Below, one piece after another: positions 1,104 through 19,513 of a stretch of 32,000 nt of DNA; position 1 is the stretch's first letter, and each line of letters begins with the position of its first letter. The position numbers and the translations under genes are program-made. The stretch is from Microcystis aeruginosa NIES-2549 (lineage in GTDB: Bacteria > Cyanobacteriota > Cyanobacteriia > Cyanobacteriales > Microcystaceae). The DNA lies in contig NZ_CP011304.1 of assembly GCF_000981785.2 (NCBI RefSeq), forward strand, positions 930,001 through 962,000, read 5' to 3'. The notes below the pieces were generated by a model. The model had not been told where the DNA came from and made no database searches. It worked only from the letters and a program-made list of their open reading frames with translations.

Positions 1104-3155
1104 CTACACCAGACTATAGACAATTACTAAACCCAAAACTGCGGCAAAGACAATTAAAGCGTAGAATTGGGCGCGACCATTTTCGAGGTATTTGAGACCT
1201 TCACCACTGACAAGAGTAGCTAAACCGGTTAAATTCACTGCCCCATCGATAACGCGATAATCCACTTCCATAATTTGCCGTGCGAGACGACGACAACCCT
1301 GGACAAAAACTCGATCATAGAGATTATCAATGTACCATTTGTTCAGGGAAAAACGATACAAAGCGGGGAATTTTTCCGCAATAGTTGCGGGGTCAATTTT
1401 CTTCTGGAGATACATCAAAGAAGCGACAGTAATCCCGATTAAAGCAATCCCCACCGAATTACCCGCCATAATCAGAAACTCTGTCCAATCAAAAGCATGA
1501 ACTTCTTCCACCACTTCGTTAGGAACATGAATAAAACCCTCGAAGAAATTCTGCCAAGGTTTACCCACCAAACCGATTAACAAAGAGGGAACCGCCAAAA
1601 TCATGAGAGGTAAAGTCATAGTAATTGGCGATTCGTGGGGTTCATGGGCATGATGGCCGTGGTTGTCTTCTTCCTGTGCTTCCGAGTCTAATTGCTTAAC
1701 ATTCATCGCCCCCGGTCCAAAAGCTGGAATCGCGCCCGCATTGGCTAACAGTCGGCGTTTAATCTCCTTATTAGTCCCTCTAAACTCCCCTTCAAAGGTG
1801 TTAAAGTACATCCGGAACATATAAAAAGCTGTTAAACCCGCAGTAGCCCAACCGATTAACCATAAAGACGGGTTCGCCTCAAAAGCTAAACCGAGAATTT
1901 CATCCTTAGACCAGAAACCGGCGAAGGGAGGAATCCCACAGATGGCCAGAGTTCCCACCAGGAAAGTCAGGGCAGTAATGGGCATATACTTGCGTAAACC
2001 GCCCATCATCCGCATATCTTGCGCTAAAACCGGCTCATGACCGACCACATCCTCCATACCGTGGATGACCGAACCGGAACCGAGGAACAACATCGCTTTA
2101 AAATAAGCGTGGGTCATCAGGTGGAATAACCCGGCACTATAAGCGCCGATACCCATAGCCATAACCATGTAACCCAATTGGGAGATGGTGGAATAGGCTA
2201 AACCCTTTTTGATATCATTCTGGGTGAGGGCGATACTTGCCCCTAGGAAGGCGGTAAAGGCCCCCGTCCAAGCAATTACCGTCATCGCCGTGGGAATTGG
2301 CTCAAAAACGGGATACATCCGAGCAATCAGGAAAACTCCGGCGGCCACCATCGTGGCGGCGTGAATCAGGGCCGAAATTGGGGTCGGACCTTCCATGGCA
2401 TCCGGTAGCCAGACATGAAGGGGAAACTGGGCTGATTTGGCCACGGGTCCAAGGAAGACTAAAACGGCGAATAATGCCGCTAAACTGCCGGCAATGGCTC
2501 CAGAAGAGACTAATTCCTCTAGACGTTCACCCATGATATCAAACTCGAAGCTACCAGTGGCCCAGAAAAGCCCCAGCATTCCCAGTAATAAGCCAAAATC
2601 GCCGACGCGGTTGGTAACAAAGGCTTTTTGACAGGCCTCGGCAGCCGCCGGACGAGTGAACCAGAAACCTACTAGCAGATAGGAACACATCCCCACCAAT
2701 TCCCAGAAAACGTAGATCTGGACGAGGTTGGGACTGATGACCAAACCGAGCATAGAACTGCTAAAAATGCTCAGATAGGCGTAAAAACGCACATAACCGG
2801 GGTCGTGGGCCATGTAACCATCGGTATAAATCATCACCAAAAAGGCCACGGTGGTGACGATAACCGACATTAAAGCACTGAGGTGATCGATCGTATAACC
2901 CATTTTCAGGTGAAAGTTACCCGCCGATGCCCAATCGATCATTTGGTTGTAGGGAGCGTGTCCATTGATTTGACTCCACAGCAGCGCAAAAGACAGCACC
3001 ATCGACGCGCCGAGGGTAGAAATGATCAATACAGCATTCACCTGTCGCAGACGATTGGTGACTTCATTAAAGGAAATTAAGCCCGCGCCCACTAGGGTAG
3101 CGCCTACCAAAGGCAGGACGGGAACTAGCCACGCGTACTGATAAAGCGGTTCCAT
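1104..3155 (-). CDS. ndhF: NAD(P)H-quinone oxidoreductase (NDH-1) subunit 5, NdhF1-type
   Basis: 683-aa polytopic membrane ORF. The N-terminus MEPLYQYAWLVPVLPLVGA and conserved NuoL/NdhF antiporter-like motifs (WLPDAMEGPTPISALIHAATMV) are present. The length and the His/acid-rich loop fit NdhF1. Confidence 0.95.
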   Translation of the reverse strand: MEPLYQYAWLVPVLPLVGATLVGAGLISFNEVTNRLRQVNAVLIISTLGASMVLSFALLWSQINGHAPYNQMIDWASAGNFHLKMGYTIDHLSALMSVIVTTVAFLVMIYTDGYMAHDPGYVRFYAYLSIFSSSMLGLVISPNLVQIYVFWELVGMCSYLLVGFWFTRPAAAEACQKAFVTNRVGDFGLLLGMLGLFWATGSFEFDIMGERLEELVSSGAIAGSLAALFAVLVFLGPVAKSAQFPLHVWLPDAMEGPTPISALIHAATMVAAGVFLIARMYPVFEPIPTAMTVIAWTGAFTAFLGASIALTQNDIKKGLAYSTISQLGYMVMAMGIGAYSAGLFHLMTHAYFKAMLFLGSGSVIHGMEDVVGHEPVLAQDMRMMGGLRKYMPITALTFLVGTLAICGIPPFAGFWSKDEILGLAFEANPSLWLIGWATAGLTAFYMFRMYFNTFEGEFRGTNKEIKRRLLANAGAIPAFGPGAMNVKQLDSEAQEEDNHGHHAHEPHESPITMTLPLMILAVPSLLIGLVGKPWQNFFEGFIHVPNEVVEEVHAFDWTEFLIMAGNSVGIALIGITVASLMYLQKKIDPATIAEKFPALYRFSLNKWYIDNLYDRVFVQGCRRLARQIMEVDYRVIDGAVNLTGLATLVSGEGLKYLENGRAQFYALIVFAAVLGLVIVYSLV

Positions 3156-3525
3156 TCAGTAATACCTAGTTTACAACTTCACACTATTTGGTTTATCTTC
3201 ATCTATTGTGACATAGGTTAATTCTTAAGAAAGTGTTTATACCTAGTTTTGCTCAATAGGGCGGCGAAAGGTCAAAGGATCTTATCAATTTGGCAGTTTA
3301 GCGAGCGGGACGGTAATTTTTAGGGAGAAGCGGGAAAATTATCGAATAACCACGAAAGCAAGAGAAAGACCAAATACGGGTTTCCCCTAGCTAATACGAC
3401 AATTTATTTAGTACAATTTAACTATACCGATCAAAATTAGTCCAAAAGGGAAATTATTCTTTGTATAGTGCCTGTCACAGTTAAAATCATTGAGTATGAT
3501 GGGGAGTTTAACTTAACGAGGTATC

Positions 3526-4512
3526 ATGTCCACCGCTCGCCATATCCTAGCACTTCTAAAAAGTCATGTAGAAGGCGAAGAGCAGCAATTTTATTCTGCT
3601 GCCCTACAGATGGCTGCACACGAAGCAAGACAAGGACATGGTAAGTTAGCCCAAGAAATTCGCGAATTAATTGACCAAGCAAAGGCTAGTAAATCGGTTA
3701 TTGAAAAAAAATCTGATCCAATTCCTTTAGTACAACCAAAAGGAGATTTAGCCAATCTGGTTTCGGTCAGATATCCCGATATTCGATTATCGGATATGAT
3801 TTTAACCTCTGACCTTGAATTTAGACTTAAACGAGTATTAACTGAACAAAGACAAGGAAAAAGACTCAGAGAACATAATCTTATGCCTCGTCGGAAACTG
3901 TTGTTAGTAGGTCCACCGGGTTCTGGTAAAACAATGACGGCTGAAGCTTTAGCAGGAGAGCTTAAATTACCTTTGTTTACGACTTTATACGATAGTCTAA
4001 TGGGCAAGTATATGGGAGAAACGGCTAGTCGTTTAAAAGTGATTTTTGAGGCAATGACAATAACAAAAGGGGTCTATTTTTTTGATGAATTTGATGCGAT
4101 TGGGACTCAACGTCATAATTCTAACGACGTGGGAGAAATTCGTCGCATTCTCAATTCTTTTTTGATGTTTTTAGAACAAGAGCAAGGGGATAGTTTGATT
4201 TTAGCAGCGACTAATCATCCTCAGTTACTAGACAAAGCTCTTTTTAGGCGTTTTGATGATGTAATTGAATATCAGCTTCCCGATGCCGCAATTATTCGTG
4301 AATTGATTGAATCTCGTCTTATTTCTTTTGAAATTGACTGGAAAGATTGGTCAAACATTCTTAATCAAGCCAATGGACTCGCTCAAGCTGAAATTGTCAG
4401 AGCGACAGATGACGCAGCCAAGCAAGCTGTTTTGTCAAATAGTCAGAAGGTAAGCGAAGATTCTCTGATTTCAGCTATTATGGAACGTAAGGATCTGAAC
4501 TTCAATGAATAA
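3526..4512 (+). CDS. classical AAA+ ATPase, IetA-like partner of the downstream S8 protease
   Basis: 328 aa. Walker A is GPPGSGKT (aa 129-136). Walker B is VYFFDEFD (D187/E188). Sensor-1 is LILAATNHP and the Arg-finger region is ALFRRFD. GAGG lies 5 nt upstream of the ATG. A 14-nt gap separates it from the next gene on the same strand. Confidence 0.85.
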   Translation: MSTARHILALLKSHVEGEEQQFYSAALQMAAHEARQGHGKLAQEIRELIDQAKASKSVIEKKSDPIPLVQPKGDLANLVSVRYPDIRLSDMILTSDLEFRLKRVLTEQRQGKRLREHNLMPRRKLLLVGPPGSGKTMTAEALAGELKLPLFTTLYDSLMGKYMGETASRLKVIFEAMTITKGVYFFDEFDAIGTQRHNSNDVGEIRRILNSFLMFLEQEQGDSLILAATNHPQLLDKALFRRFDDVIEYQLPDAAIIRELIESRLISFEIDWKDWSNILNQANGLAQAEIVRATDDAAKQAVLSNSQKVSEDSLISAIMERKDLNFNE

Positions 4513-4526
4513 AACCTAATCCCATA

Positions 4527-7019
4527 ATGTCGCAACGTTCTCGCCGTCTTCCTCACTTGTATCTACGGAATAACGATAAATTTCGTAAAAGCGCCGATTA
4601 TACTTCACCGCGCTCAGTTAATGCTCCACCACCACCCGATCGGAACAGAATAGAACACGCTGCAAAATTAGAACTTGCTATTGGTGAAGCGATTACGAAA
4701 GCTCGTCAACAATTAGAATCCCGTTTATCGGCAATTGCCGTCGGACAACCCGGATTCTATTTAGAATTTCAGGTAACAAAAGATCAAGCGAATGCTTTTG
4801 AAAATTTAGGAGATAAACGCAAAAAAATTGAATTAGTTGCTGTTAAGCCTTCTCCTGAACAAGAAAATATAGTTAAGGCTACTGTTTTTGTACCAGAGTC
4901 AGCGACAGAATTTTTTGAGAACAAAGTAGAAGAATATCGTGATGAAGAAACAACAAAAGGAAACCCAAAAAATGCAGCCCTAATAACACGACTAGAAAAC
5001 GTTGAAATTGGTACAGTTCAATCATTATTTACTGATGATCCTGCTTTATTTCCTCAGAATGGACAATCAATATGGTGGGAAGTATGGTTACGTCGTGGAC
5101 AACTTGAAGACTTCCAAACCATTGCTCAAAGACTCGATATTATGACTAAATTTCATATACATTTTCCCGAAAGAACTGTTACTTTAGCTATGGCTAATGT
5201 AGAAAAAATACAGCAAGTTCTTCAAAATTCTGATACGGTTGCAGAATTAAGAATTGCTAAAGATACGCCTTCCTTTTTTCTTGATATGAAATTAATTGAA
5301 AAGGAGGAATGGGTCGAGGATTTATGGAATCGAACTTTACCTCCTAGAGATAATGCTGTTGCTGTCTGTCTTCTTGATTATGGAGTTAATAGACGACATA
5401 AACTGATTGAAAAAGGTCTTGATAGTAGTGATTTATATACTTGTGATCCTAATTGGGGAACTCATGATCCTCATAATACACATGGTACAGAAATGGCGGG
5501 TTTAATTCTTTATGATGATTTATTTAATGCTTTACAAACACAAGGATATATAACGCTTATTCACCGTTTAGAATCAGTTAAAATTCTCCCTCCTGTCGGA
5601 CAAAATGATCCTGAACTTTATGGCGCAATTACAGAGCAAGCAGTCTCTCGTCCAGAAATACAAAATCCCAAGCGAAAACGTATTTTCTGTATGGCTGTAA
5701 CTAGCGAGCAGCCATCACCAAATTATGGAACTCCCTCCTCATGGTCAGCAGCAATAGATCAACTATCTTTTGGTGAAGATAATTTTAAGCGATTAATCAT
5801 TATTTCAGCAGGAAATATCAGAGAAGAAATATCTTTATCTGATTATTTAACCCGCAATGATGTGGCAACAATTGAAAACCCAGCACAAGCTTGGAATGCT
5901 CTTGTTGTGGGAGCTTACACTGAAAAAGTTAATATCAGTCATCCCGACTTTCACGGTTGGCAACCTGTAGCTCCTTGGGGTGATTTATCTCCTAAAAGTT
6001 GTACTTCTGTTTCTTGGGAAAATCAATGGCCAATTCGTCCTGATATTGTTTGTGAAGGGGGAAATTATGCCTCAGATGGGGAAAATTATGCACAAATGAT
6101 TGACGATTTATGCTTATTAACAACTGCTCATAGTCATAACTATAAATTGTTTACTTATATGTGTGATACCAGTTGTGCAACTGCACTCGCTAGTTATATG
6201 GCTGCTCGAATTCTTTCAGAAAATCCCAAATATTGGCCAGAAACAATACGCGCTTTAATCGTTCATTCAGCCGAATGGACTGTTAGGATGATAGCTAATT
6301 TTCCAAAGAAATTGAAGCAGCAAGATAAAAAAAATTTGATTCGTCGCTATGGATATGGTGTTCCTGATTTAGACAGAGCTTTAAAAAGTTCAAATAGTGA
6401 CTTAACAATGGTTATTGAAGATCAATTGACACCTTTTAAAAAAGATGGTAGTGTCATTAAAACAGACAAAATGAATCTTCATAGCTTACCCTGGCCAAAA
6501 GAAAAGTTAGAAGAATTAGGAGAAGCCAAGGTAGAACTGAGAGTAACTTTATCGTATTTTATAGAACCTAATCCAGGGGAGCGAGGTTATAAAAGAAAAC
6601 ACCATTATGCCTCTTATGGACTCAGATTTCAAGTAAAAAAACCTTTAGAGACCGATGACCAATTTCGACATAGAATTAATAAAGCTACCAGAAAAGAAGA
6701 AAAAAATATTTCTGGCAGTAAAGAGGAAGATAACTGGTTTTTGGGTCCTCATTTAAGGAGTCAAGGTTCACTTCATTCTGATATATGGACAGGAACGTCC
6801 GTCGATTTAGCAAGTAGAGGAATGATAGGCGTTTATCCTGTTGGTGGATGGTGGAAAGAACAAACACAAGAGGAACGCCATGATCAACCTGTTCGCTATA
6901 CATTAATTGTAACGATTCGAGTACCAGAAATTGAGTGTGATATTTACACCCCTGTATCTAATTTAATTTTAATCAGTCAAGATACACCCACTAACATACC
7001 AATAGAAACAGAGATTTAA
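4527..7019 (+). CDS. S8 (subtilisin-like) serine peptidase with long N- and C-terminal extensions, IetS-like
   Basis: 830 aa. The candidate catalytic triad is D284 (CLLDYGVN), H319 (HNTHGTEMAGL) and S549 (CDTSCATALASYMA), with oxyanion N430 (ISAGN). About 280 aa N-terminal and about 200 aa C-terminal to the S8 core have no motif I recognise. Confidence 0.85.
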   Translation: MSQRSRRLPHLYLRNNDKFRKSADYTSPRSVNAPPPPDRNRIEHAAKLELAIGEAITKARQQLESRLSAIAVGQPGFYLEFQVTKDQANAFENLGDKRKKIELVAVKPSPEQENIVKATVFVPESATEFFENKVEEYRDEETTKGNPKNAALITRLENVEIGTVQSLFTDDPALFPQNGQSIWWEVWLRRGQLEDFQTIAQRLDIMTKFHIHFPERTVTLAMANVEKIQQVLQNSDTVAELRIAKDTPSFFLDMKLIEKEEWVEDLWNRTLPPRDNAVAVCLLDYGVNRRHKLIEKGLDSSDLYTCDPNWGTHDPHNTHGTEMAGLILYDDLFNALQTQGYITLIHRLESVKILPPVGQNDPELYGAITEQAVSRPEIQNPKRKRIFCMAVTSEQPSPNYGTPSSWSAAIDQLSFGEDNFKRLIIISAGNIREEISLSDYLTRNDVATIENPAQAWNALVVGAYTEKVNISHPDFHGWQPVAPWGDLSPKSCTSVSWENQWPIRPDIVCEGGNYASDGENYAQMIDDLCLLTTAHSHNYKLFTYMCDTSCATALASYMAARILSENPKYWPETIRALIVHSAEWTVRMIANFPKKLKQQDKKNLIRRYGYGVPDLDRALKSSNSDLTMVIEDQLTPFKKDGSVIKTDKMNLHSLPWPKEKLEELGEAKVELRVTLSYFIEPNPGERGYKRKHHYASYGLRFQVKKPLETDDQFRHRINKATRKEEKNISGSKEEDNWFLGPHLRSQGSLHSDIWTGTSVDLASRGMIGVYPVGGWWKEQTQEERHDQPVRYTLIVTIRVPEIECDIYTPVSNLILISQDTPTNIPIETEI

Positions 7020-7116
7020 TCTTTACATCGAACTTCATCCATTAAATATATCTCAGGAATTGAGAAAATTGGTAACGATTCTCTGTCAGTTTCCCTACCA
7101 ACTTTTTCACCTTCCC

Positions 7117-7176
7117 TCCCCAACAACCCAACTTAATCAGCGCGATTTAGACATGGCTAGAGGAAATAGAGGTTTA
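7117..7176. repeat. about 60-bp direct repeat, copy 1 (partner at 7635-7694)
   Basis: tccccaacaacccaacttaatcagcgcgatttagacatggctagaggaaatagaggttta aligns with the second copy with about 5 mismatches. Confidence 0.8.
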
Positions 7177-7319
7177 GAGGAACTAAAGAGTTGGTCAATA
7201 ATGGGTAAAATGTTTGTGTATAGGACATTTTGAAACCCGCGGATTTGCCTCCCGATGGCAAACCATTCCCACTTCCATGGCGCGTTACGTCCCATAAATT
7301 CCCAACTCATTTTTTCCCC

Positions 7320-7529
7320 ATGACTAAACCCTTAGACTCCCTGAAACAGCCCAATCCCTCGGAAAAAACAGCCCCTAGAGATGATTGGTTAGATAGCGAA
7401 CTATCTCGTTTAGAAGATTATGAACCTTACGATTGGGGAGAAATAGATCCCTTAATGTTAGGCAAACCCGTACAATATGTTTCTAGTATTGGCTTAGTTG
7501 TAGAGGGTGGCAAAGATTGGGGTTGCTGA
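7320..7529 (+). CDS. small hypothetical protein (69 aa from the first ATG; the track ORF starts at a TTG at 7230)
   Basis: The ORF is MTKPLDSLKQPNPSEKTAPRDDWLDSELSRLEDYEPYDWGEIDPLMLGKPVQYVSSIGLVVEGGKDWGC. It is acidic and reminiscent of small cyanobacterial antitoxin-like proteins, but I recognise no family with confidence. Confidence 0.4.
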   Translation: MTKPLDSLKQPNPSEKTAPRDDWLDSELSRLEDYEPYDWGEIDPLMLGKPVQYVSSIGLVVEGGKDWGC

Positions 7530-7634
7530 TTTGCAATAGGAATCTTCTTGTGTGGGGTTTTTAAAACCTAGAGCCAAACTAACTTTTGGATAGGATGCAC
7601 AGTTGGCATTCATAGCTTGAGTCAGCAACACCCC

Positions 7635-7694
7635 TCCCCAGCAACCCAAGTTAATCAGTGCGATTAAAACATGGCTAGAGGAAATAGAGGTTTA
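7635..7694. repeat. about 60-bp direct repeat, copy 2 (partner at 7117-7176)
   Basis: tccccagcaacccaagttaatcagtgcgattaaaacatggctagaggaaatagaggttta. Confidence 0.8.
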
Positions 7695-7790: not shown

Positions 7791-8507
7791 TTATTCAGGT
7801 ATTAGATACCCTAGCTGATCCATCTGCCAACCTAACTGAGTTGGCTGCTGATAAACCTTTTTTAAAGTGTTAATATCCCGGCTAGAAATCGGGGCAATAT
7901 CTCTAGTTTGAGCGAAATACATCACATCCGTCTCCAGGGGACTATGACCCCAAATTCCCAAAGCGTGACCTAATTCGTGCCGCGCTGCCGCTAAGGCCGA
8001 CCGATCGGCTAAATTAGGACTAATCTGGATACTCATCCGATGAGTTAGGCGATTTTCCTTGACAAAAATCTCGTATTGTGTTATGGCAGAACGCACCCGA
8101 GGCAGTTCTAACTTACCCGTTTCGGCATTAAAACGGACTCCCGACGGCGGTAACTCCCGTTTAATGAGGATATCGGCCAATTCTGCCCGATTTACCAACT
8201 CGATCGGCAAATACTGCCCCCATTCAGCGATCGCCTGTTGTACCAAACTCAGCCAAGAACTGCGATCGCTGTGAACATAAATCTTCACGGGAAATTGCGA
8301 CCAAATCAACGCCCCCACGGGACTGATTTCTACAGCATCAAAATAATCCCCGGACTGGTTTTGCTCTTGCCATTGGGCTAAATTAGCGGGTAAAGGATGG
8401 GTTTTTAACTCTGGTAGCGATCGACTGTCGGCGATCAAAGAATAGGAAAACAGCAAAAGACTCGCCAAGGCTGCGAGTCCTAGAAAAGAGAACCGACCTC
8501 TTAGCAT
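7791..8507 (-). CDS. secreted zinc metalloprotease, matrixin/M10-like (HExxHxxGxxH)
   Basis: 238 aa with an N-terminal signal-like segment (FSFLGLAALASLLLFSYSLIA). The zinc-binding motif is HELGHALGIWGH, with a downstream Met (DVMYF) as a possible Met-turn. Confidence 0.8.
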   Translation of the reverse strand: MLRGRFSFLGLAALASLLLFSYSLIADSRSLPELKTHPLPANLAQWQEQNQSGDYFDAVEISPVGALIWSQFPVKIYVHSDRSSWLSLVQQAIAEWGQYLPIELVNRAELADILIKRELPPSGVRFNAETGKLELPRVRSAITQYEIFVKENRLTHRMSIQISPNLADRSALAAARHELGHALGIWGHSPLETDVMYFAQTRDIAPISSRDINTLKKVYQQPTQLGWQMDQLGYLIPE

Positions 8508-11733: not shown

Positions 11734-11842
11734 AGAAGACAAAACAGGATAGACTTTTCTCTAGTCCGATTTAGTTTGAGGGCCATGAAGGATTTATTGG
11801 CGATTTTTAGCAAGGAATTAAGCTTTTGGTTAGCGGTACTAT
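11734..11842. repeat. 109-bp direct duplicate of the mlaE upstream/5' coding region (partner at 13549-13672)
   Basis: It is near-identical to 13549-13672 except for a few substitutions and a 15-nt deletion between two ttgg microhomologies. It contains a truncated MKDLLAIFSKELS... start (ATG 11785) that ends after 23 codons. Confidence 0.9.
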
Positions 11843-11859: not shown

Positions 11860-12111
11860 ATGAACAAAAAACAGAGGAAAACCTATAATGCTATTTTTGC
11901 CGATCCCATCCGTTGTAACATCGTTTGGGATGATGTCCTTAACTTAATTCAGTCATTAGGAGGTAACATTACTCAAGGCGATGGCTCAAGAGTACGATTT
12001 GACCTTAACAAAATTTCCCTCAATATTCATTCCCCTCACCCCCAAAAAGAACTAAAAAGATACCAAATTAAAGCTCGTCGTGAATTTTTAATTAAAGCAG
12101 GAGTAAATTAA
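11860..12111 (+). CDS. hicA: type II toxin HicA family
   Basis: 83 aa. The pattern KTYNAIFADPIRCNIVWDDVLNLIQSLGG...GDGSRVRF...HSPHPQKELKRYQIKARREFL matches the HicA-family consensus as I remember it. Its TAA overlaps the ATG of the next gene (TAATG). Confidence 0.75.
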   Translation: MNKKQRKTYNAIFADPIRCNIVWDDVLNLIQSLGGNITQGDGSRVRFDLNKISLNIHSPHPQKELKRYQIKARREFLIKAGVN

Positions 12112-12329
12112 TGCAATACAAAGGCTATGAAGCTGTGATTGAATACGATGAAAGCGATCGCTTATTTTTTGGTCGTGTCATCAACATAGAAGATATTATC
12201 GTTTTTGATGGTCTTTCCGTTGATGAACTAGAACAAGCTTTTAAAACTGTTATTGAACAATACTTAGCAGATTGTCAAACCCTTAATAAAAACCCTAATC
12301 AACCGACTTATCCCTTATCTTCTCATTAG
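12111..12329 (+). CDS. hicB: type II antitoxin HicB family, short form (N-terminal HicB fold only)
   Basis: 72 aa. MQYKGYEAVIEYDESDRLFFGRVINIEDIIVFDGLSVDELEQAFKTVIEQYLADC is the typical HicB N-domain. It ends where full-length HicB proteins continue into an RHH/HTH domain. Confidence 0.7.
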   Translation: MQYKGYEAVIEYDESDRLFFGRVINIEDIIVFDGLSVDELEQAFKTVIEQYLADCQTLNKNPNQPTYPLSSH

Positions 12330-12408
12330 TTAGAAGGCGATTGCGTTTTGTGGTGAGTGATTAGGCGATCGCCTATAATAATTAGGATTATTGTCAAGTT
12401 CAGCCGCT

Positions 12409-12549
12409 ATGACTACCACAAACAATCAAGAAAGAAGAAACCAGTTGATGATGAAAGAAATCATTCCTTTCGATCAACGACTAAATTCTAGATTAAATAA
12501 ACAAAAAATTACCATATTACAAGTTAATTTAGGCAAACACTACAATTGA
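12409..12549 (+). pseudogene. possible 5' remnant of a radical SAM (ArsS-like) gene
   Basis: The 46-codon ORF MTTTNNQERRNQLMMKEIIPFDQRLNSRLNKQKITILQVNLGKHYN stops where radical SAM proteins of this type carry the CxxxCxxC cluster (LQVNLGKxCN...). This rests on recognition by memory only. Confidence 0.35.
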
Positions 12550-12609
12550 TATTATAATCATTGCCATTTATAACCGCTTCTTGAGGTTCTTTACTCGGCA
12601 GATAATCGG

Positions 12610-12912
12610 CTATTGCGATTGATGTTTGACGTAGGTTCGTAATACATCATTAATTAGGTCGTGATAGCTCTTTTCTTGAGCATGATTCCTAAACCACTCA
12701 AGGATTTCTGAATCCAACCTGATACTAATTTGCTCTGTTTGTGGATTTGGTTTGACCAGTTTAGCATTCTTGAAAAATTCATCATCTAGGGGAGGAATAT
12801 CTGAATAATCAATATCCTCATCGGACATTTGCATAAATTTCTCCTGTCGCTCTTTAGGAGGCATATCAAGGGAAAATTCAGGGTTGATCATAGCGTTTTC
12901 TCTCCCGTTCAT
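12610..12912 (-). CDS. brnA: BrnA antitoxin (type II TA)
   Basis: 100 aa (or 93 aa from the internal ATG at 12891). The motifs DEDIDYSDIPPLDDEFFKNAKLV and ISIRLDSEILEWFR are typical BrnA. It overlaps the upstream brnT 3' end. Confidence 0.8.
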   Translation of the reverse strand: MNGRENAMINPEFSLDMPPKERQEKFMQMSDEDIDYSDIPPLDDEFFKNAKLVKPNPQTEQISIRLDSEILEWFRNHAQEKSYHDLINDVLRTYVKHQSQ

Positions 12913-13165
12913 TGGCTTTTCTGGCTGATATGAGACGAATGGTTTGACTTATTTGAGTATGAATAACTACGATGATCGCTTTCTTTTCTTGGGTGGCAAG
13001 CGTTATTTGCCCTATTGAAACAAATCTCGTTTCCCCATAGTTGCATCGGGTATCCTCAAAGGTCAGGATAGAAGGATCAGCGAATATAGCGATCGCTTCC
13101 TCGAAACTGATACCGTGTTTGATGAGATTGCTTTGGTTTTTATTGTTGTCCCAGTCGAAGACCAT
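12878..13165 (-). CDS. brnT: BrnT toxin (DUF497 ribonuclease toxin)
   Basis: 95 aa. FDWDNNKNQSNLIKHGISFEEAIAIFADP...ETRFVSIG...IRLISARKANERERKRY is the classic BrnT pattern. The toxin-first order is as in brnTA. Confidence 0.85.
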   Translation of the reverse strand: MVFDWDNNKNQSNLIKHGISFEEAIAIFADPSILTFEDTRCNYGETRFVSIGQITLATQEKKAIIVVIHTQISQTIRLISARKANERERKRYDQP

Positions 13166-13548
13166 ATCATCAATATATACATTTTTGTGCGTACAAGATC
13201 AAAGCATCTGAACAATCGCTTTTTCTGGGAATGAAAAGTAATTCATTGATCTATTCGGCTCTTCTGGTTTCTGTGTGGAAACGAGGTCTATACTAGAGTT
13301 CTTCCATAATTAATTTTTGAGAGGGCAAAAATGAGAAAAATAGGCATAAAATTGCATAAAATCACTAAATAGAGCATTTAATTGATTAATGCTCATTCTT
13401 AATTTTCCTGACTCCGAGACTACTGGCTCCGTTCGGCTGAGCTCACGGCCGAAGCCTTAATCCTCACCTAACGGAAGATTTTTGATTTTTGCCAGAGGTC
13501 TAGTACAAAAATTCTGCACTATCCATAGCATGGTAGGGAATGGGAGTT

Positions 13549-13672
13549 AGAAGACAAAACAGGATAGACTTTTCTCTAGTCCGATCGATTTTGAGGGCCA
13601 TGAAGGATTTATTGGCAATTTTTAGCAAGGAATTAAGCTCTTGGTTTCGGCGCTGTTGGTTAGCGGTACTAT
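13549..13672. repeat. 124-bp direct repeat, intact copy at the true mlaE 5' end (partner at 11734-11842)
   Basis: See 11734-11842. This copy is continuous with the full-length mlaE ORF. Confidence 0.9.
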
Positions 13673-14406
13673 TAACCGGCAGGGTTTTTTACTTCCTATT
13701 CACACGCAAACCCGATTGGCGCGTCACCCAAGAACAAATGGTGGCAGCTGGGCCCGCCTCGCTGATTATCGCCATGATCACGGCCGCAGTGATCGGGATG
13801 ATCTTTACTATCCAAGTGGCCCGGGAGTTCCAAGCCTTGGGCGCCGGCAGTATGGTGGGGGGAATTTTGGCCCTGGCTCTCGGTCGGGAACTCTGTCCGA
13901 TTATGATGGCGATCGTGGTAGCCGGTCGGGTAGGATCGGCTTTTGCGGCGGAAATCGGTACCATGAAGGTGACAGAGCAGATCGACGCACTCTATATGCT
14001 CAAAACCGATCCCGTGGAATATCTGGTGCTGCCGCGTTTAATTGCCTGTTGTCTGATGGTTCCCGCTTTGAGTGTTATGGCATTGCTGATCGGTTTGGGT
14101 AGCGGTTTGCTGGTCGGCCAAAGTTTATACGGGATTGCTAATTCAGTTTTTCTCGACTCGGTTCGCGGTTTTCTGCGCGTGGGAGACGTGCTGAGTGGAC
14201 CAGTTAAAGGGGTGGTTTTTGGGGCTTTAATCGCGATTATCGGCTGTAATTGGGGTTTAACGACCGATGGCGGTGCTAAAGGAGTCGGCCAAGCTACGAC
14301 CGCAGCTGTAGTCACTATGCTCTTAGCGATTTTTGTATCTAATCTGCTGATGACTTGGATCTTGTTCCAAGGATCTGGTAATAGTTCGGTTTTGTTTGGA
14401 CAGTAA
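13600..14406 (+). CDS. mlaE: MlaE/YrbE-family ABC transporter permease (TGD1/Ycf63-like lipid transport)
   Basis: The ORF is open from 13540, and the first ATG at 13600 gives 268 aa. It is multi-TM, and the motifs GAGSMVGGILALALGRELCPIMMAIVVAGRVGSAFAAEIGTMKVTEQIDAL are typical MlaE. Confidence 0.85.
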   Translation: MKDLLAIFSKELSSWFRRCWLAVLLTGRVFYFLFTRKPDWRVTQEQMVAAGPASLIIAMITAAVIGMIFTIQVAREFQALGAGSMVGGILALALGRELCPIMMAIVVAGRVGSAFAAEIGTMKVTEQIDALYMLKTDPVEYLVLPRLIACCLMVPALSVMALLIGLGSGLLVGQSLYGIANSVFLDSVRGFLRVGDVLSGPVKGVVFGALIAIIGCNWGLTTDGGAKGVGQATTAAVVTMLLAIFVSNLLMTWILFQGSGNSSVLFGQ

Positions 14407-14667
14407 TTTCAGTTAAAAACGCTCATTTTCTAGCCATTGTTCTAAGTCCTCTACTGACTGAAAATCTAATAAAGCTTCTCCTAAGTTTTCTAAATTTTCT
14501 AGAGAAAGACTTGAGAGCTTGGCGGATAATTCGGCAGAAATGCCACCTATACGCCGATTTAATTGACGTAGAAGCAAATTGATGGCTTCTTCTTGTCTTC
14601 CTTCCCCTTTGATTTCCTGATAGATGACAGATTCTTTCATAATGTCCTTCCTCAACAATTGTTGAAT
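14401..14667. repeat. about 267-bp direct repeat, copy 1 (partner at 15081-15346, roughly 90% identical by eye)
   Basis: The copy starts at the mlaE stop (cagtaa) and runs through a duplicate of the Rpn/DUF4351 gene 3' end. Confidence 0.9.
14413..14658 (-). pseudogene. stand-alone DUF4351-like fragment, a duplicate of the C-terminal 81 aa of the Rpn-family protein at 15092-15907
   Basis: LRKDIMKESVIYQEIKGEGRQEE...LENLENLGEALLDFQSVEDLEQWLENERF is near-identical to the C-terminus of the 271-aa ORF. The track start is a TTG, and the first ATG is at 14640. Confidence 0.6.
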
Positions 14668-14700
14668 ATTGATTATCCCTAGGTTGAGATTAAATTATCT

Positions 14701-15042
14701 CTAATATCCATCGGGGAAATATTTAGCAAGACAAGCGGAACAAATTCCTGCTTTGCTAAAATCATCTCCATAGTCTTGTACGTTAGCTGATGCTTGACGA
14801 CAGTAGGAACAAATTTGAAATATCGTTGCTATCGTTCTCTGTTCTTCCACATCATCAAAATCATAAAAACACTCATTACTGAGAATTTCACCGATATTGA
14901 CATCGCAACGGAATGATTCTTTAATTATGTCCAAAACTATCGACTGTTGTTCTTCAAAACTTAGGGACTGAAACGCCTTATTTTTCAAATACAATCGACC
15001 TAACATTGCATTGACGGCATAACTAGCTTGATGATCTGACAT
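14701..15042 (-). CDS. hypothetical Cys-rich protein (113 aa) with C-terminal CxxC...CxxC zinc-ribbon-like motif
   Basis: The ORF is intact, with CSYCRQ-(17 aa)-CSACLAKYF at the C-terminus. I recognise no family. Confidence 0.5.
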   Translation of the reverse strand: MSDHQASYAVNAMLGRLYLKNKAFQSLSFEEQQSIVLDIIKESFRCDVNIGEILSNECFYDFDDVEEQRTIATIFQICSYCRQASANVQDYGDDFSKAGICSACLAKYFPDGY

Positions 15043-15080
15043 AATGATAATAGAGGGAATTAATAGAATAAAAATAACCG

Positions 15081-15346
15081 CAGTAAATTAGTTAAAAACG
15101 CTCATTTTCTAGCCATTGTTCTAAGTCCTCTACTGACTGAAAATCTAATAAAGCTTCTCCTAAGTTTTCTAAATTTTCTAGAGAAAGACTTTGGATATTG
15201 GCAGATAATTCGGCAGAAATGCCACCTATACGCCGATTTAATAGACGTAAAACCAGGTTAGCCTCTCCTTCTTGTCTTCCTTCCTCTTTGATTTCCTGAT
15301 AGATGACAGATTCTTTCATAATGTCTTTCCTCAACAATTGTTGAAT
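15081..15346. repeat. about 266-bp direct repeat, copy 2 (partner at 14401-14667)
   Basis: cagtaaattagttaaaaacgctcattttctagccattgttctaagtcc... aligns with 14401 onward. Confidence 0.9.
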
Positions 15347-15907
15347 GATGTCTTTGTTTAATACTAATCCAGCGAGAATTGCGGTGGAGGCAGCCAGATT
15401 GCTTTGTTCTCGACTGTCGCTGATTTGTTCGATTTTTTGGGCGATTTGCCGCAGTAAATTCTCTTGCTCCTCAGCTTGAGCTAGTATAGCAAAGGGCAAT
15501 AGTCCTGGTGCTTGCAATAAGGGTTGATAGGGTTGTTCCCATAGTCTAATCACCTCAAATTGATGATAAGTTTTTCCCTGTTGATAGTCATTCTGTCTGA
15601 CTAGGGGTAAGGTACTCCTCCTTAGATAAATCACTACCTGATGGATAGGTTTGCCTTGATAGCGTCGATAGAGTCTTGTGGCATAATCGAGCATTCTATA
15701 GGGAATATCCTCTTTAGGGTCGGTTTGGAACTCAATATGTAAGATTAATTCTTCTGACTCTAAAAAGATTAAACTATCGGCTCTTATCGGCTCCAATGAC
15801 AACTCTGAGGGTTTAATTTCGGTTAAATCTAAAGGTTTACCTAATAACCAAGTGGCTAAATCTCTCGAATATTCCAGGGCGATAAATTTACAAGTAGAAT
15901 CATACAT
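15092..15907 (-). CDS. Rpn-family recombination-promoting nuclease/putative transposase (PD-(D/E)xK) with C-terminal DUF4351
   Basis: 271 aa. The pattern EPIRADSLIFLESEELILHIEFQTDPKEDIPYRMLDYATRLYRRY...HQVVIYL is the typical cyanobacterial Rpn/YhgA-like core. Confidence 0.8.
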   Translation of the reverse strand: MYDSTCKFIALEYSRDLATWLLGKPLDLTEIKPSELSLEPIRADSLIFLESEELILHIEFQTDPKEDIPYRMLDYATRLYRRYQGKPIHQVVIYLRRSTLPLVRQNDYQQGKTYHQFEVIRLWEQPYQPLLQAPGLLPFAILAQAEEQENLLRQIAQKIEQISDSREQSNLAASTAILAGLVLNKDIIQQLLRKDIMKESVIYQEIKEEGRQEGEANLVLRLLNRRIGGISAELSANIQSLSLENLENLGEALLDFQSVEDLEQWLENERF

Positions 15908-16090
15908 TAGTCTTGACTATATTTTACCTAAAATGTCGGATGAATGCCCCCGCTAAATTTTTCGACAAGATACTCACCTTTGCGGGGGATGAAATCCGAC
16001 CAGGATATTGACTGCGAAGCACGATTTTAATTCTACCATTTGTAGGTAAACTGTGTTATACTTAATTGATACAGGGTCGAGGATTAATCG

Positions 16091-17473
16091 ATGCTAGTCG
16101 TAGAAGCCAAGTTAAAAAACGGGACACCAGAGCAATATCAACGGCTTGATGAAGCTATCAAAACTTCTCAGTTTGTGCGTAACTCTTGTGTTCGTCATTG
16201 GATGGACAATAAGGGGACAACCCGCAATGATCTCCAAAAACTTTGTGCGGTACTAGCTAACAATAAAGAGACCCCTTGGGTTAACAAATTAAACTCTCAA
16301 GCTCGTCAATCGGCTGCTGATAGAGCCTGGCAATCAATTAGTACATTCTATAAAAATTGTCATGCTAAGATACCGGGGAAAAAGGGGTTTCCTCGATTCA
16401 AAAAGCATAGCCGTTCGGTTGACCCTTCGGCTTCGCTCAGGGTCAACGTCGAGCGAAGTCGAGATGTTGAATACAAACTAACGGGCTACAAACTATCAGA
16501 TGATCGACGTAAAATCAGATTTACTGACGGTTTTAAAGCAGGAGAATTTGATTTATGGTGTAGTCAAAAGACATTAGTTTATTATTCAGAACAACAGATT
16601 AAACGGGTAAGAGTTGTTAGACGTGCTGACGGTTATTATTGCCAGTTTCTGATTGACGTAGAACGGCAAGAATACCATAAACCGACGGGACAAATAACAG
16701 GAATTGACTTAGGGTTAAAAGAGTTTTATACTGACGCTCAAGGTAATACTGTAGAGAATCCACGTTATTTAAGAAAGTCAGAAAAACGACTGAAAAAAGC
16801 ACAAAGACGATTATCCAAAAAGTTTCGCAAAGGAAAGAAACAGTCTAAAAACTATCACAAGCAACGGATAAAAGTAGCTAGGCTTCATCTTAAAGTGTCA
16901 AGACAACGTAAAGACAAAGCAATTAAAGACGCTTTGGCGTTAGTCCAGTCTAATGATCTGGTAGTTTATGAAGCTTTAAAGGTAAGAAACTTAGTCAAAA
17001 ACCGTAAGCTTGCCAAGTCGATTAGTGATGCTTCTTGGTATCAATTCACTGAATGGTTGAATTATTTTGCCAAGATTTATCGGATTGTTTGTATTGCTGT
17101 TCCTCCCCATTTCACGACTCAAGATTGTTCAGTTTGTGGGACGAGAGTTCAAAAAACATTAAGCACTAGAACTCATCAATGTCCCAATTGTAAAACAGTC
17201 TTAGATAGGGATCATAATGCAGCAATAAATATTCTTAAAAAAGGGTTGCAATATTTGGGAAAACATCTCAATGCCTCGACTTCGCTCGGCATTGACACTG
17301 AGCGAAGTCGAAGTGTCAATGGTACTGTTGGGCAAACAGAAACCGACCTAAACGCCTTGGGAGAGTCCGACCTCTGGGTTTTTAATGGAGACATTGAGAA
17401 TCTAAGTTGTCTCGTTGAACAAGGAATTTCTAACAGCGATGTGGAAAGAATCCCCCGTCACAGCGTAGCTTGA
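16091..17473 (+). CDS. tnpB: TnpB (OrfB) RNA-guided endonuclease, IS605/IS1341 family
   Basis: 460 aa. The RuvC triad candidates are GIDLGLKEF (D), VVYEALKV (E) and DRDHNAAINI (D). The zinc finger is CSVCG...CPNC. The N-terminal OrfB_IS605 pattern is MLVVEAKLKNGTPEQYQRLDEAIKTSQFVRNSCV. Confidence 0.9.
   Translation: MLVVEAKLKNGTPEQYQRLDEAIKTSQFVRNSCVRHWMDNKGTTRNDLQKLCAVLANNKETPWVNKLNSQARQSAADRAWQSISTFYKNCHAKIPGKKGFPRFKKHSRSVDPSASLRVNVERSRDVEYKLTGYKLSDDRRKIRFTDGFKAGEFDLWCSQKTLVYYSEQQIKRVRVVRRADGYYCQFLIDVERQEYHKPTGQITGIDLGLKEFYTDAQGNTVENPRYLRKSEKRLKKAQRRLSKKFRKGKKQSKNYHKQRIKVARLHLKVSRQRKDKAIKDALALVQSNDLVVYEALKVRNLVKNRKLAKSISDASWYQFTEWLNYFAKIYRIVCIAVPPHFTTQDCSVCGTRVQKTLSTRTHQCPNCKTVLDRDHNAAINILKKGLQYLGKHLNASTSLGIDTERSRSVNGTVGQTETDLNALGESDLWVFNGDIENLSCLVEQGISNSDVERIPRHSVA
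16418..16463. repeat. palindromic mini-insertion (SDR/MITE-like) inside tnpB, in frame
   Basis: Interleaved inverted repeats are gttgaccc/gggtcaac and cttcgctc/gagcgaag. The insertion encodes DPSASLRVNVERSRD, which interrupts the conserved FPRFKK..SVEYK segment. Confidence 0.65.
17275..17320. repeat. second palindromic mini-insertion of the same family inside the tnpB 3' region
   Basis: Interleaved repeats are ctcgacttcgctc/gagcgaagtcgaag and attgacact/agtgtcaat. It shares the cgacttcgctc...gagcgaagtcga core with 16418-16463. Confidence 0.65.
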
Positions 17474-17486
17474 CGGTGGGAGTATG

Positions 17487-18059
17487 TCAATCAAAAATGG
17501 AGATAAATAAACTAAAGCCTGGTAAGACATCCTCTCCGCTTAAATTAGCGGGTAGTTCCATAATTTCTAAGGGTTGCTGAGGACGATAAATTTCCACCTG
17601 TTGTTGTTGAGGATTAACTAGCCAACCTAATCGCAAACCACTGTGGAGATATTCCCGCATTTTAGCTTGAATTTCTGGGAGGGAATCGCTACGGGAGCGC
17701 AGTTCAATAACGAAATCGGGACAAATAGGCGGAAATTTCTCCTGTTCTTCTCGACTTAGAGCTTGCCAACGGGTTAAACTCACCCAAGCGGCATCAGGAG
17801 CGCGATATCCGCCTTTCGGCAAACGAAAAATCGTCGCCGAACTAAAGACTTTACCCAATCGGGTTTGACGATTCCAGATACCTAAGTCAATGATAAAATC
17901 GGCTTCTCGGTTGCCGCTAATTCCCCCAACAGGTGGCATCACAATTAATTCTCCTTGGGCGTTTCTTTCCAGTTGCCAATCTGGGTTAACTTGACAGAGA
18001 CGGTAAAACTGCTCATCGCTGAGATTGACTGTATCTAAGTTTAAAATCACTGCTGCCAT
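17487..18059 (-). CDS. Uma2-family (DUF820) restriction-endonuclease-like protein
   Basis: 190 aa. The patterns NPDWQLERNAQGELIVMPP, APDAAWV, PDFVIELRS and LGWLVNP are typical Uma2. Confidence 0.85.
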   Translation of the reverse strand: MAAVILNLDTVNLSDEQFYRLCQVNPDWQLERNAQGELIVMPPVGGISGNREADFIIDLGIWNRQTRLGKVFSSATIFRLPKGGYRAPDAAWVSLTRWQALSREEQEKFPPICPDFVIELRSRSDSLPEIQAKMREYLHSGLRLGWLVNPQQQQVEIYRPQQPLEIMELPANLSGEDVLPGFSLFISIFD

Positions 18060-18146
18060 AGCTATATTTCGCCCTAGAAAACACTCTAGTCTTAATTATA
18101 GTCAATTATACTAAATCCGGTTATTAAAAACTGATTATTTATTCCT

Positions 18147-18174
18147 CCTCTTGCCTCTTGCCTCTTGCCTCTTG
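18147..18174. repeat. heptamer tandem repeat (CCTCTTG)4
   Basis: Direct reading: four perfect units. Confidence 0.95.
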
Positions 18175-18213
18175 CCCATCCTGATATGTAGCATATACTC
18201 AACGGATTTAGTC

Positions 18214-19227
18214 TTAGATTCCCCGCCAGATTGCGATCGCACCGTCTCGATCTCCAGTGACTAACCAACGACCATCTTGACTGGCAACCATTCTTAAGAT
18301 GACGTTTCCCTTCAGGGTATTCAAGCGCCGACGGGTATTAACATCCCAAAATTTGACGGTTCCATCCCCGGAAGTGCTGGCCAAAACTTTGCCCCCATCG
18401 AGCAGGGCCATATCAGTTACAGCGTCGTTATGGGCGAGAATAGTAGTGGTGCCGATGCCACTTTTCACTTGCCAACTGCGGATCGAACCGTCTTGACTAG
18501 CAGTACCGGCGATCTTACCATCCTTGGAAAAAAGCACCCGATAAACGGGGAATAAATTACCCGCATAGGCACGAATAAAGCGACCGGTACTCACTTTCCA
18601 CAGTTTAACGAAACCATCGTAATCGGCGCTCACAATTCCTTTACCATCGGGACTAAATGCGATCGCCTGAATCGGATGATTATGGCCGTGCAGGGTTTTT
18701 AACAGTGTACCCGTCTGAAAATCCCAGAGTTTAACAGTACGATCCCAGCTACCCGTAGCCAAAATTTTGCCATCGGGAGAAATAGCGGCATCGGTAACGA
18801 GAAAAGCATGGCCAGTATAGGTCATTTCTAATTTTCGCGTGCGCGTATTCCAGCGTTGCACTTTTCCCCCCGCATCGGCAGTTACGAAAGTCTCACCATC
18901 GGGACTAAATTGGATAGCATTGACAGTATCTCCTAGTTGCCAAGTCCTGAGAGGTTTTTGAGTTTTTAGGTCCCATTCCCTGACAGTACCGTCAAAACTA
19001 CCACTTAGCAGCAAGGAGTTATCGGGACTAATGGCCAAAGCATAGATGGGATCCTGATCGGCTTTTAAAATAGTAACCCGTTCCACCATCTGCCAAGGAA
19101 CGATTTCTGCTAGGGGAGACGCTTGCGGAGTGATGGTTTTCTCTTTTTCCCGATTGACTGCACAACCACCGGATAGCAACAGCAGCAATAATAAAGATAA
19201 TGTCGGTTGATAAAGGGTTATTTTCAT
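18214..19227 (-). CDS. WD40-repeat beta-propeller lipoprotein
   Basis: 337 aa with a signal peptide and lipobox (LLLLLLSGGC). About 7 WD repeats follow (SGSFDGTVREWD, GSWDRTVKLWD, ADYDGFVKLWK, SGDGTVKFWD and others). Confidence 0.85.
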   Translation of the reverse strand: MKITLYQPTLSLLLLLLLSGGCAVNREKEKTITPQASPLAEIVPWQMVERVTILKADQDPIYALAISPDNSLLLSGSFDGTVREWDLKTQKPLRTWQLGDTVNAIQFSPDGETFVTADAGGKVQRWNTRTRKLEMTYTGHAFLVTDAAISPDGKILATGSWDRTVKLWDFQTGTLLKTLHGHNHPIQAIAFSPDGKGIVSADYDGFVKLWKVSTGRFIRAYAGNLFPVYRVLFSKDGKIAGTASQDGSIRSWQVKSGIGTTTILAHNDAVTDMALLDGGKVLASTSGDGTVKFWDVNTRRRLNTLKGNVILRMVASQDGRWLVTGDRDGAIAIWRGI

Positions 19228-19263
19228 AGAATTTTGCCGTTGTCAAAATCATCTTAAACTACT

Positions 19264-19470
19264 TTAAACTTGAATGGGTAAAATTTGCAGAGAATAACGA
19301 CAACGAGGAACAAGATAAATGACAAATTCTTGATTGGTTGTGTTGGCTTCTTCCAGAACATTCTGTAAATTTTCACCGTGAGCAATCACCCCTTTTTCAT
19401 TATAGGCAATGTATTGATTTTTATACAAATCAAGCACGGTGTCACGATTTTTGTTTAACCAACGTAACAT
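19264..19470 (-). CDS. DUF5678-like small protein (possibly 5'-truncated by an in-frame stop)
   Basis: 68 aa. LDLYKNQYIAYNEKGVIAHGENLQNVLEEA resembles DUF5678. An upstream in-frame ATG at 19506 is separated from the ORF by a TAA at 19497-19495. Confidence 0.45.
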   Translation of the reverse strand: MLRWLNKNRDTVLDLYKNQYIAYNEKGVIAHGENLQNVLEEANTTNQEFVIYLVPRCRYSLQILPIQV

Positions 19471-19513
19471 TTCTTGGGCTTGTTCTTGAGAGATTTAGTC
19501 TGTCATAATCTTT

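Follow-up and report, generated by a model that had tools for sequence, protein, structure and literature searches.

An IetAS ATPase and subtilase gene pair, a likely toxin-antitoxin and anti-phage module, in a strain-variable chromosomal slot of Microcystis aeruginosa NIES-2549

We analysed a stretch of 32,000 nucleotides (nt) from the chromosome of the cyanobacterium Microcystis aeruginosa NIES-2549 (contig NZ_CP011304.1, positions 930,001 to 962,000 of the forward strand), which is called the window below. It carries two genes in the same direction, ietA (328 amino acids (aa)) and ietS (4527-7019, + strand, 830 aa), encoding an ATPase and a subtilisin-like protease of the IetAS family. Nucleotide positions are those of the window, and residue numbers are those of IetA or IetS. 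The first-pass annotation of this DNA had described two co-directional genes, 14 nt apart, for an AAA ATPase and an 830-aa subtilase, and both the open reading frames (ORFs) and Pfam confirm this layout. The pair lies on a 3.75-kb cassette (3368-7117) with the following parts:

3368-3525, + strand: 158 nt of non-coding sequence at the upstream end of the cassette, beginning at the left breakpoint 3367/3368
3526-4512, + strand: ietA, a classical-clade AAA+ ATPase and putative antitoxin or regulator (PADLOC, Pfam, NCBIfam, alignment)
4513-4526, + strand: intergenic spacer of 14 nt (ORF positions)
4527-4646, + strand: IetS residues 1-40, conserved N-terminal tail and disordered segment 30-39 (alignment, model)
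4647-5336, + strand: IetS residues 41-270, N-region (PF27160 Y4kK_N in homologues, alignment, models)
5352-6359, + strand: IetS residues 276-611, S8 subtilase catalytic domain (Pfam, alignment, structure match)
6360-7019, + strand: IetS residues 612-830 and the stop codon, beta-rich C-terminal domain (alignment, model)
7020-7117, + strand: downstream non-coding tail of the cassette, ending at the right breakpoint 7117/7118

A Shine-Dalgarno-like motif, GAGG, was found about 8 nt ahead of the ietA start codon ATG. The spacer between ietA and ietS showed no obvious Shine-Dalgarno motif by reading, and because it is also only 14 nt long this suggests that the two genes form an operon with translational coupling.

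The pair is an intact, ordinary member of the known IetAS family. IetA matched the PADLOC profile hidden Markov model (HMM) PDLC02196 with E 8.7e-74 (residues 2-325 on profile positions 2-325 of 374), and three more PADLOC IetA models matched with E 6.5e-70 to 1.3e-39. IetS matched PDLC02198 with E 4.5e-37 (residues 193-812 on profile positions 175-777 of 795) as well as five more PADLOC IetS models. The best NCBIfam matches were the anti-phage ATPase IteA (NF042959) and the peptidase IteS (NF042956). The PADLOC and Pfam E-values lie far outside what chance would give, and the IetA/IetS identity that the first-pass annotation had proposed is thereby borne out. IetA/IetS were reportedly counted by Gao and colleagues in 2020 among the experimentally validated but mechanistically unexplained defence systems.

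The two genes were found together wherever this could be judged. Our sample consisted of 80 cyanobacterial and alpha- and beta-proteobacterial loci with IetS relatives, four of which could not be scored because only 3-203 nt of contig, too short for ietA, lay upstream of IetS. In the remainder (76/76) an IetA homologue was encoded directly upstream on the same strand as ietS, with gaps of 6-81 nt and a single one of 313 nt, which decisively contradicts the idea that homologues might not be linked in other genomes. Over these linked loci IetA identity (59-99%) followed IetS identity (49-91%). At 50% identity the IetS family formed 3,704 clusters with E <= 1e-3, or 1,121 with E <= 1e-30, and nearly all of the top matches listed were 800-850 aa long. 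A tblastn search found 488 plasmids with IetS homologues, and 341 of these plasmids were conjugative; Klebsiella, Agrobacterium and Rhizobium dominated. In the phage genomes searched the family was essentially absent. Among the six nearest ORFs around IetAS in 25 other genomes were genes for a CBASS (cyclic-oligonucleotide-based anti-phage signalling system) cyclase with NucC, type II and type III restriction-modification methyltransferases, Wadjet JetA/JetB, DpdC, PD-T4-2 and Tn7-like genes. These neighbours fit a defence-island or mobile-element context, for which we claim no enrichment as no background control was included.

Residues 125-249 of IetA constitute a Pfam AAA domain (PF00004, E 1.5e-30), and the nearest solved relatives of the protein are the classical-clade unfoldases AFG2/SPATA5, p97/Cdc48, VAT and PAN. 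The sequence motifs were located by alignment as follows:

3910-3933, + strand: Walker A GPPGSGKT, residues 129-136, with K135 at 3928-3930
4006-4017, + strand: pore loop 1, K161-Y-M-G164
4072-4095, + strand: Walker B VYFFDEFD, residues 183-190, with D187/E188
4213-4215, + strand: sensor-1 residue N230
4246-4251, + strand: arginine pair R241/R242

In an alignment of 71 IetA sequences drawn from linked loci, Walker A (G129-T136), D187/E188, N230 and R241/R242 were invariant, so that the Walker A, Walker B and arginine finger read as intact in the first-pass annotation hold up, the last as a pair of arginines. The pore-loop-1 motif K-Φ-M-G was kept in these homologues, where Φ is Leu, Phe, Tyr or Met, and Tyr in Microcystis. 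The helical N-terminal region of IetA (residues 1-55) was conserved as well; a Pfam scan of this region in isolation gave nothing significant.

The catalytic domain of IetS was identified by Pfam as Peptidase_S8 (PF00082, E 1.2e-61), and its active-site residues were assigned by alignment:

5376-5378, + strand: catalytic D284
5481-5483, + strand: catalytic H319
5814-5816, + strand: N430
6171-6173, + strand: catalytic S549

The triad D284, H319 and S549, correctly recognised as intact at first pass, was invariant among 75 IetS homologues with identities down to 36%. In those members of the family that have been tested, defence depends on an intact triad and on intact Walker A and B motifs. G429 and N430 did not vary in a 19-sequence alignment and were conserved to at least 90% in the 75-sequence alignment, and N430 is taken to be the oxyanion-hole Asn. 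A hydropathy scan agreed with the earlier observation that IetS has no signal peptide (maximum Kyte-Doolittle value -0.80 over 10-residue windows within the first 40 residues), and no transmembrane segment was predicted (maximum 0.93 over any 19-residue window). Conservation extended well outside the protease domain, to R6, P9, H10, Y25, P37, R39 and R41 in the N-terminal tail, to the motifs WWEVW (183-187), FPER (213-216) and AELR (239-242) in the N-region, and to TLSYFIEPNPGERG (674-687), GSxHSDxW (747-754) and GGWWK (773-777) in the C-terminal domain.

An AlphaFold2 model of full-length IetS, built from the 75-sequence alignment, reached a mean predicted local distance difference test (pLDDT) score of 89.8 and a predicted template modelling score (pTM) of 0.76. 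The top PDB structure matches of this model were ProN-Tk-SP (3afg, E 1.8e-17), Vpr, TKSP with its propeptide, EpiP, Kex2 and PCSK9, all of them subtilases solved with a propeptide and/or a C-terminal beta domain. Pro-subtilases such as Tk-SP (3afg), Kex2, PCSK9 and EpiP have an alpha/beta N-domain, an S8 domain and a beta domain, as does IetS. The structure alignments were long (500-690 columns) but had a high root-mean-square deviation (10-25 Å), which suggests that IetS has the layout of the pro-subtilases with a different packing and orientation of its domains. In contrast to IetS, the pro-subtilases are secreted and self-processing and have no partner ATPase. A PDB sequence search with IetS gave no match, and Foldseek against viral structures returned generic S8 proteases only.

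When the N-region was modelled alone (residues 1-280; pLDDT 87.9), it consisted of two beta-alpha-beta-beta-alpha-beta units (76-139 and 182-243), preceded by a long helix (41-64), and of two linker helices. The two units appear in the model as ferredoxin-like, propeptide/ACT-like folds in tandem. Foldseek of the N-region yielded only fold-level similarity, to tandem ACT and tandem bacterial microcompartment (BMC) domains, with E of at least 8e-5 and template modelling (TM) scores of at most 0.38. A Pfam scan of the N-region with a Pfam set lacking PF27160 gave nothing significant, and a PDB profile search returned noise only. PF27160 (Y4kK_N) is precomputed on IetS homologues of 90-92% identity, and the match was weak or faint in the three alleles for which a strength was given. 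The N-region is a tandem unit of about 230 residues, and it showed no sequence match to Inhibitor_I9. The C-region searched alone had no Pfam match and may, by analogy, be P-domain or beta-jelly-roll-like. Residues 1-28 of the tail formed beta strands (pLDDT 74-84) in the full-length model, whereas they were coil (pLDDT 49-61) in the model of the N-region only. Because the tail was ordered in the full-length model alone, its docking site seems to lie on the catalytic or the C-terminal part of the protease. IetS can thus be described from the models as a putative four-part protein with a tail, a tandem ferredoxin-like Y4kK_N region, an S8 domain and a C-terminal beta domain.

Several known systems can be compared with the Microcystis pair. 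On the Agrobacterium tumefaciens Ti plasmid pTiEML4 (214,233 bp, which is the size of pTiC58, and which we therefore take to be pTiC58) an "ATP-binding protein" of 328 aa and an "S8 family peptidase" of 836 aa are encoded by adjacent genes in the same order. The proteins of the two pairs are colinear over their full length, with 60% identity over 323 aa for IetA and 47% over 830 aa for IetS, and they share the ATPase and protease motifs as well as the N- and C-terminal regions of IetS. The Ti-plasmid pair is located on a conjugative plasmid, whereas that of Microcystis is chromosomal and found in a cyanobacterium. It was on pTiC58, a Ti plasmid of Agrobacterium, that IetAS was defined (Yamamoto et al. 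2009, cited in PMC8562856). The IetAS systems that protect E. coli and Bacillus cereus from phage (Gao et al. 2020; Stokar-Avihail et al.) are matched by the same profile HMMs and have the same two-gene architecture. Microcystis IetS was about 40% identical to an enterobacterial plasmid IetS over residues 37-824. For the SPbeta gene yosG, the trigger of Bacillus IetAS, no counterpart is known for the Microcystis pair. The ietHAS system (Liu-DS4), in which IetAS is combined with an SNF2 helicase (PMC13069673), has the IetA and IetS core in common with the Microcystis cassette, but here no helicase gene was present inside or beside it and positions 3368-7117 held the two genes only. In TA132/133, a mycoplasma module pairing an AAA-ATPase with a subtilisin-like protease (PMC8562856), the ATPase gene likewise lies upstream of the S8 gene on the chromosome, and toxin and antitoxin roles have been shown by experiment. 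Its proteins of 353 and 757 aa differ in size from those of 328 and 830 aa described here, and the likeness is one of gene layout, not of sequence comparison.

We further found that the pair is compositionally foreign to its surroundings. The GC content of the cassette was 0.372 compared to 0.431 for the window, making it the lowest-GC stretch of 3.75 kb therein, and GC at third codon positions was 0.21-0.27 in ietA and ietS compared to 0.38-0.53 in neighbouring genes. The ORF list gives the flanks of the cassette:

1104-3155, - strand: ndhF, left flank
7791-8507, - strand: gene for a 238-aa protein, right flank, followed by secG and gpmI

The window was 99.7% identical to CP012375.1 (GCA_001704955.2), a chromosome of 4.29 Mb. 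We surveyed the slot between ndhF and secG on contigs encoding an identical NdhF or an identical 238-aa neighbour, and found it to be polymorphic among very close strains. IetAS occupied it on contigs L099, L100, L105 and L106, a three-gene cassette on the opposite strand on L097, L098 and L101-L104, and PemK and UPF0175/DUF3368 modules or a DDE transposase on L088 and L089. The breakpoints were sharp, at 3367/3368 on the left and at 7117/7118 on the right (7730/7731 in some strains), and strains lacking IetAS aligned to the window only up to 3367 on the left. Of the 16 contigs with an identical IetS, 15 were only 2-5 kb long, because assemblies break where the cassette begins and ends. Neither a tRNA nor an integrase nor bracketing direct repeats were found at these edges, so that the cassettes are probably exchanged, as we infer, via homologous recombination in the conserved flanks. 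The pair is therefore a horizontally acquired, exchangeable 3.75-kb cassette whose one chromosomal slot is taken by other cargo in other strains, which refines the earlier and correct statement that it is inserted between housekeeping genes.

The alternative three-gene cassette (L097:3888-7836; also on L098 and L101-L104) fills the slot equivalent to window positions 3368-7117/7730 next to an identical NdhF. Its first gene encodes a tetratricopeptide repeat (TPR) protein of variable length (449-755 aa), the C-terminus of which matched, with E about 1e-13, trypsin-like protease modules found in the defence proteins RT-Protease_XI, the LmuA protease variant and PDC-S45. The second gene (245-246 aa, weak FlgD_ig) and the third (379 aa) had no PADLOC match. 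Possibly this cassette represents an uncharacterised protease-based system allelic to IetAS. On a metagenomic Microcystis contig (L089:998-2523) the slot held a gene for a PemK-family toxin with a 66-aa partner together with the UPF0175/DUF3368 pair. A 69-aa ORF to the right of the cassette (7320-7529), which had no family match, was considered as a third component and rejected, as it also occurs with the alternative cassette and is bracketed by 63-nt direct repeats of its own (7114-7176 and 7632-7694, 92% identical). This repeat unit was present or absent independently of IetAS, and its left repeat copy coincides with the right breakpoint of the cassette. Just upstream of the 69-aa ORF, a 76-nt segment (7232-7307) was missing in the otherwise near-identical contigs L002, L004, L088 and L100 and is a small indel or miniature insertion. 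The 238-aa neighbour has a hydrophobic N-terminus and adjoined secG in all strains examined. It had previously been called a protease; Pfam and PADLOC provided no match, and an HExxH-like motif (HELGHALGIWGH) was recognised by inspection only.

Comparison of the window with L007, L100 and L106 showed that Microcystis alleles of IetA differ at 1-3 of 328 residues and those of IetS at 71-81 of 830. The IetS differences were concentrated in two segments flanking the catalytic Asp/His (residues 241-330) and the catalytic Ser (511-560). Synonymous divergence (dS) in these segments was 0.34-0.47 compared to 0.01-0.10 elsewhere, while IetA from the same operons was 99% identical with a ratio of nonsynonymous to synonymous divergence (dN/dS) of 0.03-0.14. 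Positive selection as the cause of IetS allele divergence was rejected, because dS was also high in the divergent segments. On this sequence evidence the IetS alleles are best described as mosaics with imported recombinant segments rather than as selection hot spots. Segment 533-545 of the window IetS resembled a Geminocystis plasmid allele (P0012).

For relatives of this pair the literature describes toxin and antitoxin roles, a requirement for the protease, abortive infection and a phage-protein trigger, to which our analysis adds family membership, intact motifs, linkage, cassette and hotspot structure and domain architecture of the Microcystis pair. The IetS-type protease was described as the toxin and the IetA-type ATPase as the antitoxin; defence needed protease activity, and ietA mutants could not be cloned (PMC13069673). 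In Bacillus the system works through abortive infection, with SPbeta yosG as its trigger (bioRxiv 10.1101/2022.08.27.505566). In the mycoplasma homologue deletion of the ATPase gene alone was lethal, whereas deletion of both genes was tolerated (PMC8562856). Our literature search on the IetAS mechanism found nothing, and the first-pass description of the system as mechanistically unexplained is still valid, given that its anti-phage mechanism "remains unknown" according to PMC13069673 (April 2026).

By analogy with these relatives, IetS would be a cytoplasmic subtilase that acts as toxic effector, and IetA a hexamer-type AAA+ ATPase that acts as antitoxin and neutralises IetS enzymatically at the expense of ATP. 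Such enzymatic neutralisation is suggested by the literature together with the invariant ATPase motifs and kept pore loop, the propeptide-like N-region and the conserved, apparently docked tail. IetA would probably act by pore-loop threading, and the part of IetS that it would most plausibly engage is the conserved N-terminal tail or else the propeptide-like N-region. Once a cell is infected, either a phage protein or a loss of activity in IetA, with IetA stalled or diverted, would leave IetS active, and active IetS would cleave cellular or phage proteins and stop the cell before phage release. What we infer is that the IetS tail is threaded, that a loss of IetA activity is the trigger, and that the pair is active in Microcystis at all. 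A more specific and rather doubtful version is that IetA might be an ATP-fuelled "enzymatic antitoxin" instead of a stoichiometric inhibitor, which would keep threading or remodelling the tail and tandem N-region of IetS. Infection might then be sensed through a stall of the ATPase (by ATP depletion, a phage inhibitor or a competing phage substrate) that releases a self-folding, zymogen-like protease, and IetS alleles that are mosaic around the active-site cleft, next to a constant IetA, might represent shuffled protease specificity.

We consider it likely that this intact chromosomal IetAS is a protease/ATPase toxin-antitoxin module that provides anti-phage defence by abortive infection, and there are good grounds to expect that it works in the general way of its family. 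Some points weigh against this. The scores for both proteins missed the NCBIfam equivalog cut-offs (209.8 of 510 bits for IteA and 69.7 of 900 bits for IteS), because of which the pair is judged from sequence to be a divergent subfamily relative to the NCBI exemplars, different from that of E. coli and Bacillus cereus IetAS. Its immediate neighbours in this genome are housekeeping genes and not a classical defence island, and a literature search found no experiment on any cyanobacterial member. Promoter and terminator scans of the cassette gave no signal above chance: a weak sigma-70-like site upstream of ietA (3472-3500) scored within chance, and no terminator-like site was found in the downstream tail (7020-7117). 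Pore-loop position 162 was Leu in 31 of the 71 IetA homologues, which is less canonical for a translocase. Lastly, that IetA in fact engages and threads the tail or N-region of IetS is a tentative proposal that we would sooner doubt than assume.

Other explanations were weighed against this background. The pair might be a pure addiction or stabilisation module, i.e. a selfish toxin-antitoxin system that resists loss of its locus as on pTiC58 and provides no phage defence in Microcystis. The earliest description of the family, cited in PMC13069673 and PMC8562856, is that of a plasmid-stability system, its homologues reside on 488 mostly conjugative plasmids, and PemK, UPF0175/DUF3368 and ParE toxin-antitoxin modules occur in or beside the slot. 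We nevertheless regard this as unlikely, since E. coli and Bacillus members confer phage protection and respond to a phage gene (PMC13069673; 10.1101/2022.08.27.505566) and homologues adjoin CBASS, restriction-modification and Wadjet genes in other genomes; moreover, stabilisation and defence are not mutually exclusive.

The polarity of the pair could also be reversed, with IetA as an activator that unfolds or strips the propeptide-like N-region of a zymogenic IetS upon a trigger, so that the ATPase switches the protease on. The propeptide-like ferredoxin folds of the N-region, the pro-form subtilases among the best structure matches and the conserved pore loop and ATPase motifs would all suit such a role. 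In other members, however, losing or mutating the ATPase either is lethal or yields no clones, while loss of both genes is tolerated (PMC8562856; PMC13069673), which identifies the ATPase as the neutraliser and makes an activating role quite improbable. An unfoldase-type AAA+ ATPase next to a protease superficially resembles ClpXP or HslUV, and the pair could accordingly be seen as a housekeeping ATP-dependent protease, in which an unfoldase feeds a protease for quality control, or as a secreted subtilase with its chaperone. Yet subtilases are not self-compartmentalised, IetS lacks a signal peptide, the best matches were defence-system HMMs, and the pair is low in GC, horizontally spread, often plasmid-borne and strain-variable. 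Its presence/absence polymorphism among strains with an identical NdhF refutes such a housekeeping function, to which we assign hardly any probability.

The wider neighbourhood of the slot gathers toxin-antitoxin modules as a whole. A ParE-toxin pair lies between gpmI and secG in several strains (L097, L100, L102), and downstream of gpmI the window contains an accessory or mobile cluster (11860-17473), followed by genes which, as an impression only, look like accessory genes as well (17487-19945):

11860-12111, strand not stated: HicA toxin, accessory cluster
12610-13165, - strand: BrnT/BrnA, accessory cluster
14701-15907, - strand: DUF4351 proteins, accessory cluster
16091-17473, strand not stated: IS605-family OrfB/TnpB, accessory cluster
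17487-18059, - strand: putative endonuclease of the Uma2 family, accessory-looking
18214-19227, - strand: WD40 repeat protein, accessory-looking
19514-19945, - strand: DUF29 protein, accessory-looking

Short repeated segments were found at about 11734-11831 and 13549-13646 as well as at 14401-14667 and 15081-15346.

The IetAS family has been known since 2009 and 2020, and PADLOC or DefenseFinder would call the pair automatically. It is a routine member of an HMM-detectable family in a new host and adds little to the mechanism of the family. The domain map of IetS together with the invariant ATPase motifs and kept pore loop of IetA narrows the hypotheses for that mechanism. Our results place an intact IetAS in bloom-forming Microcystis and show that it behaves as an interchangeable allele at one chromosomal cargo slot, a finding that helps in understanding how strains differ in cyanophage resistance.

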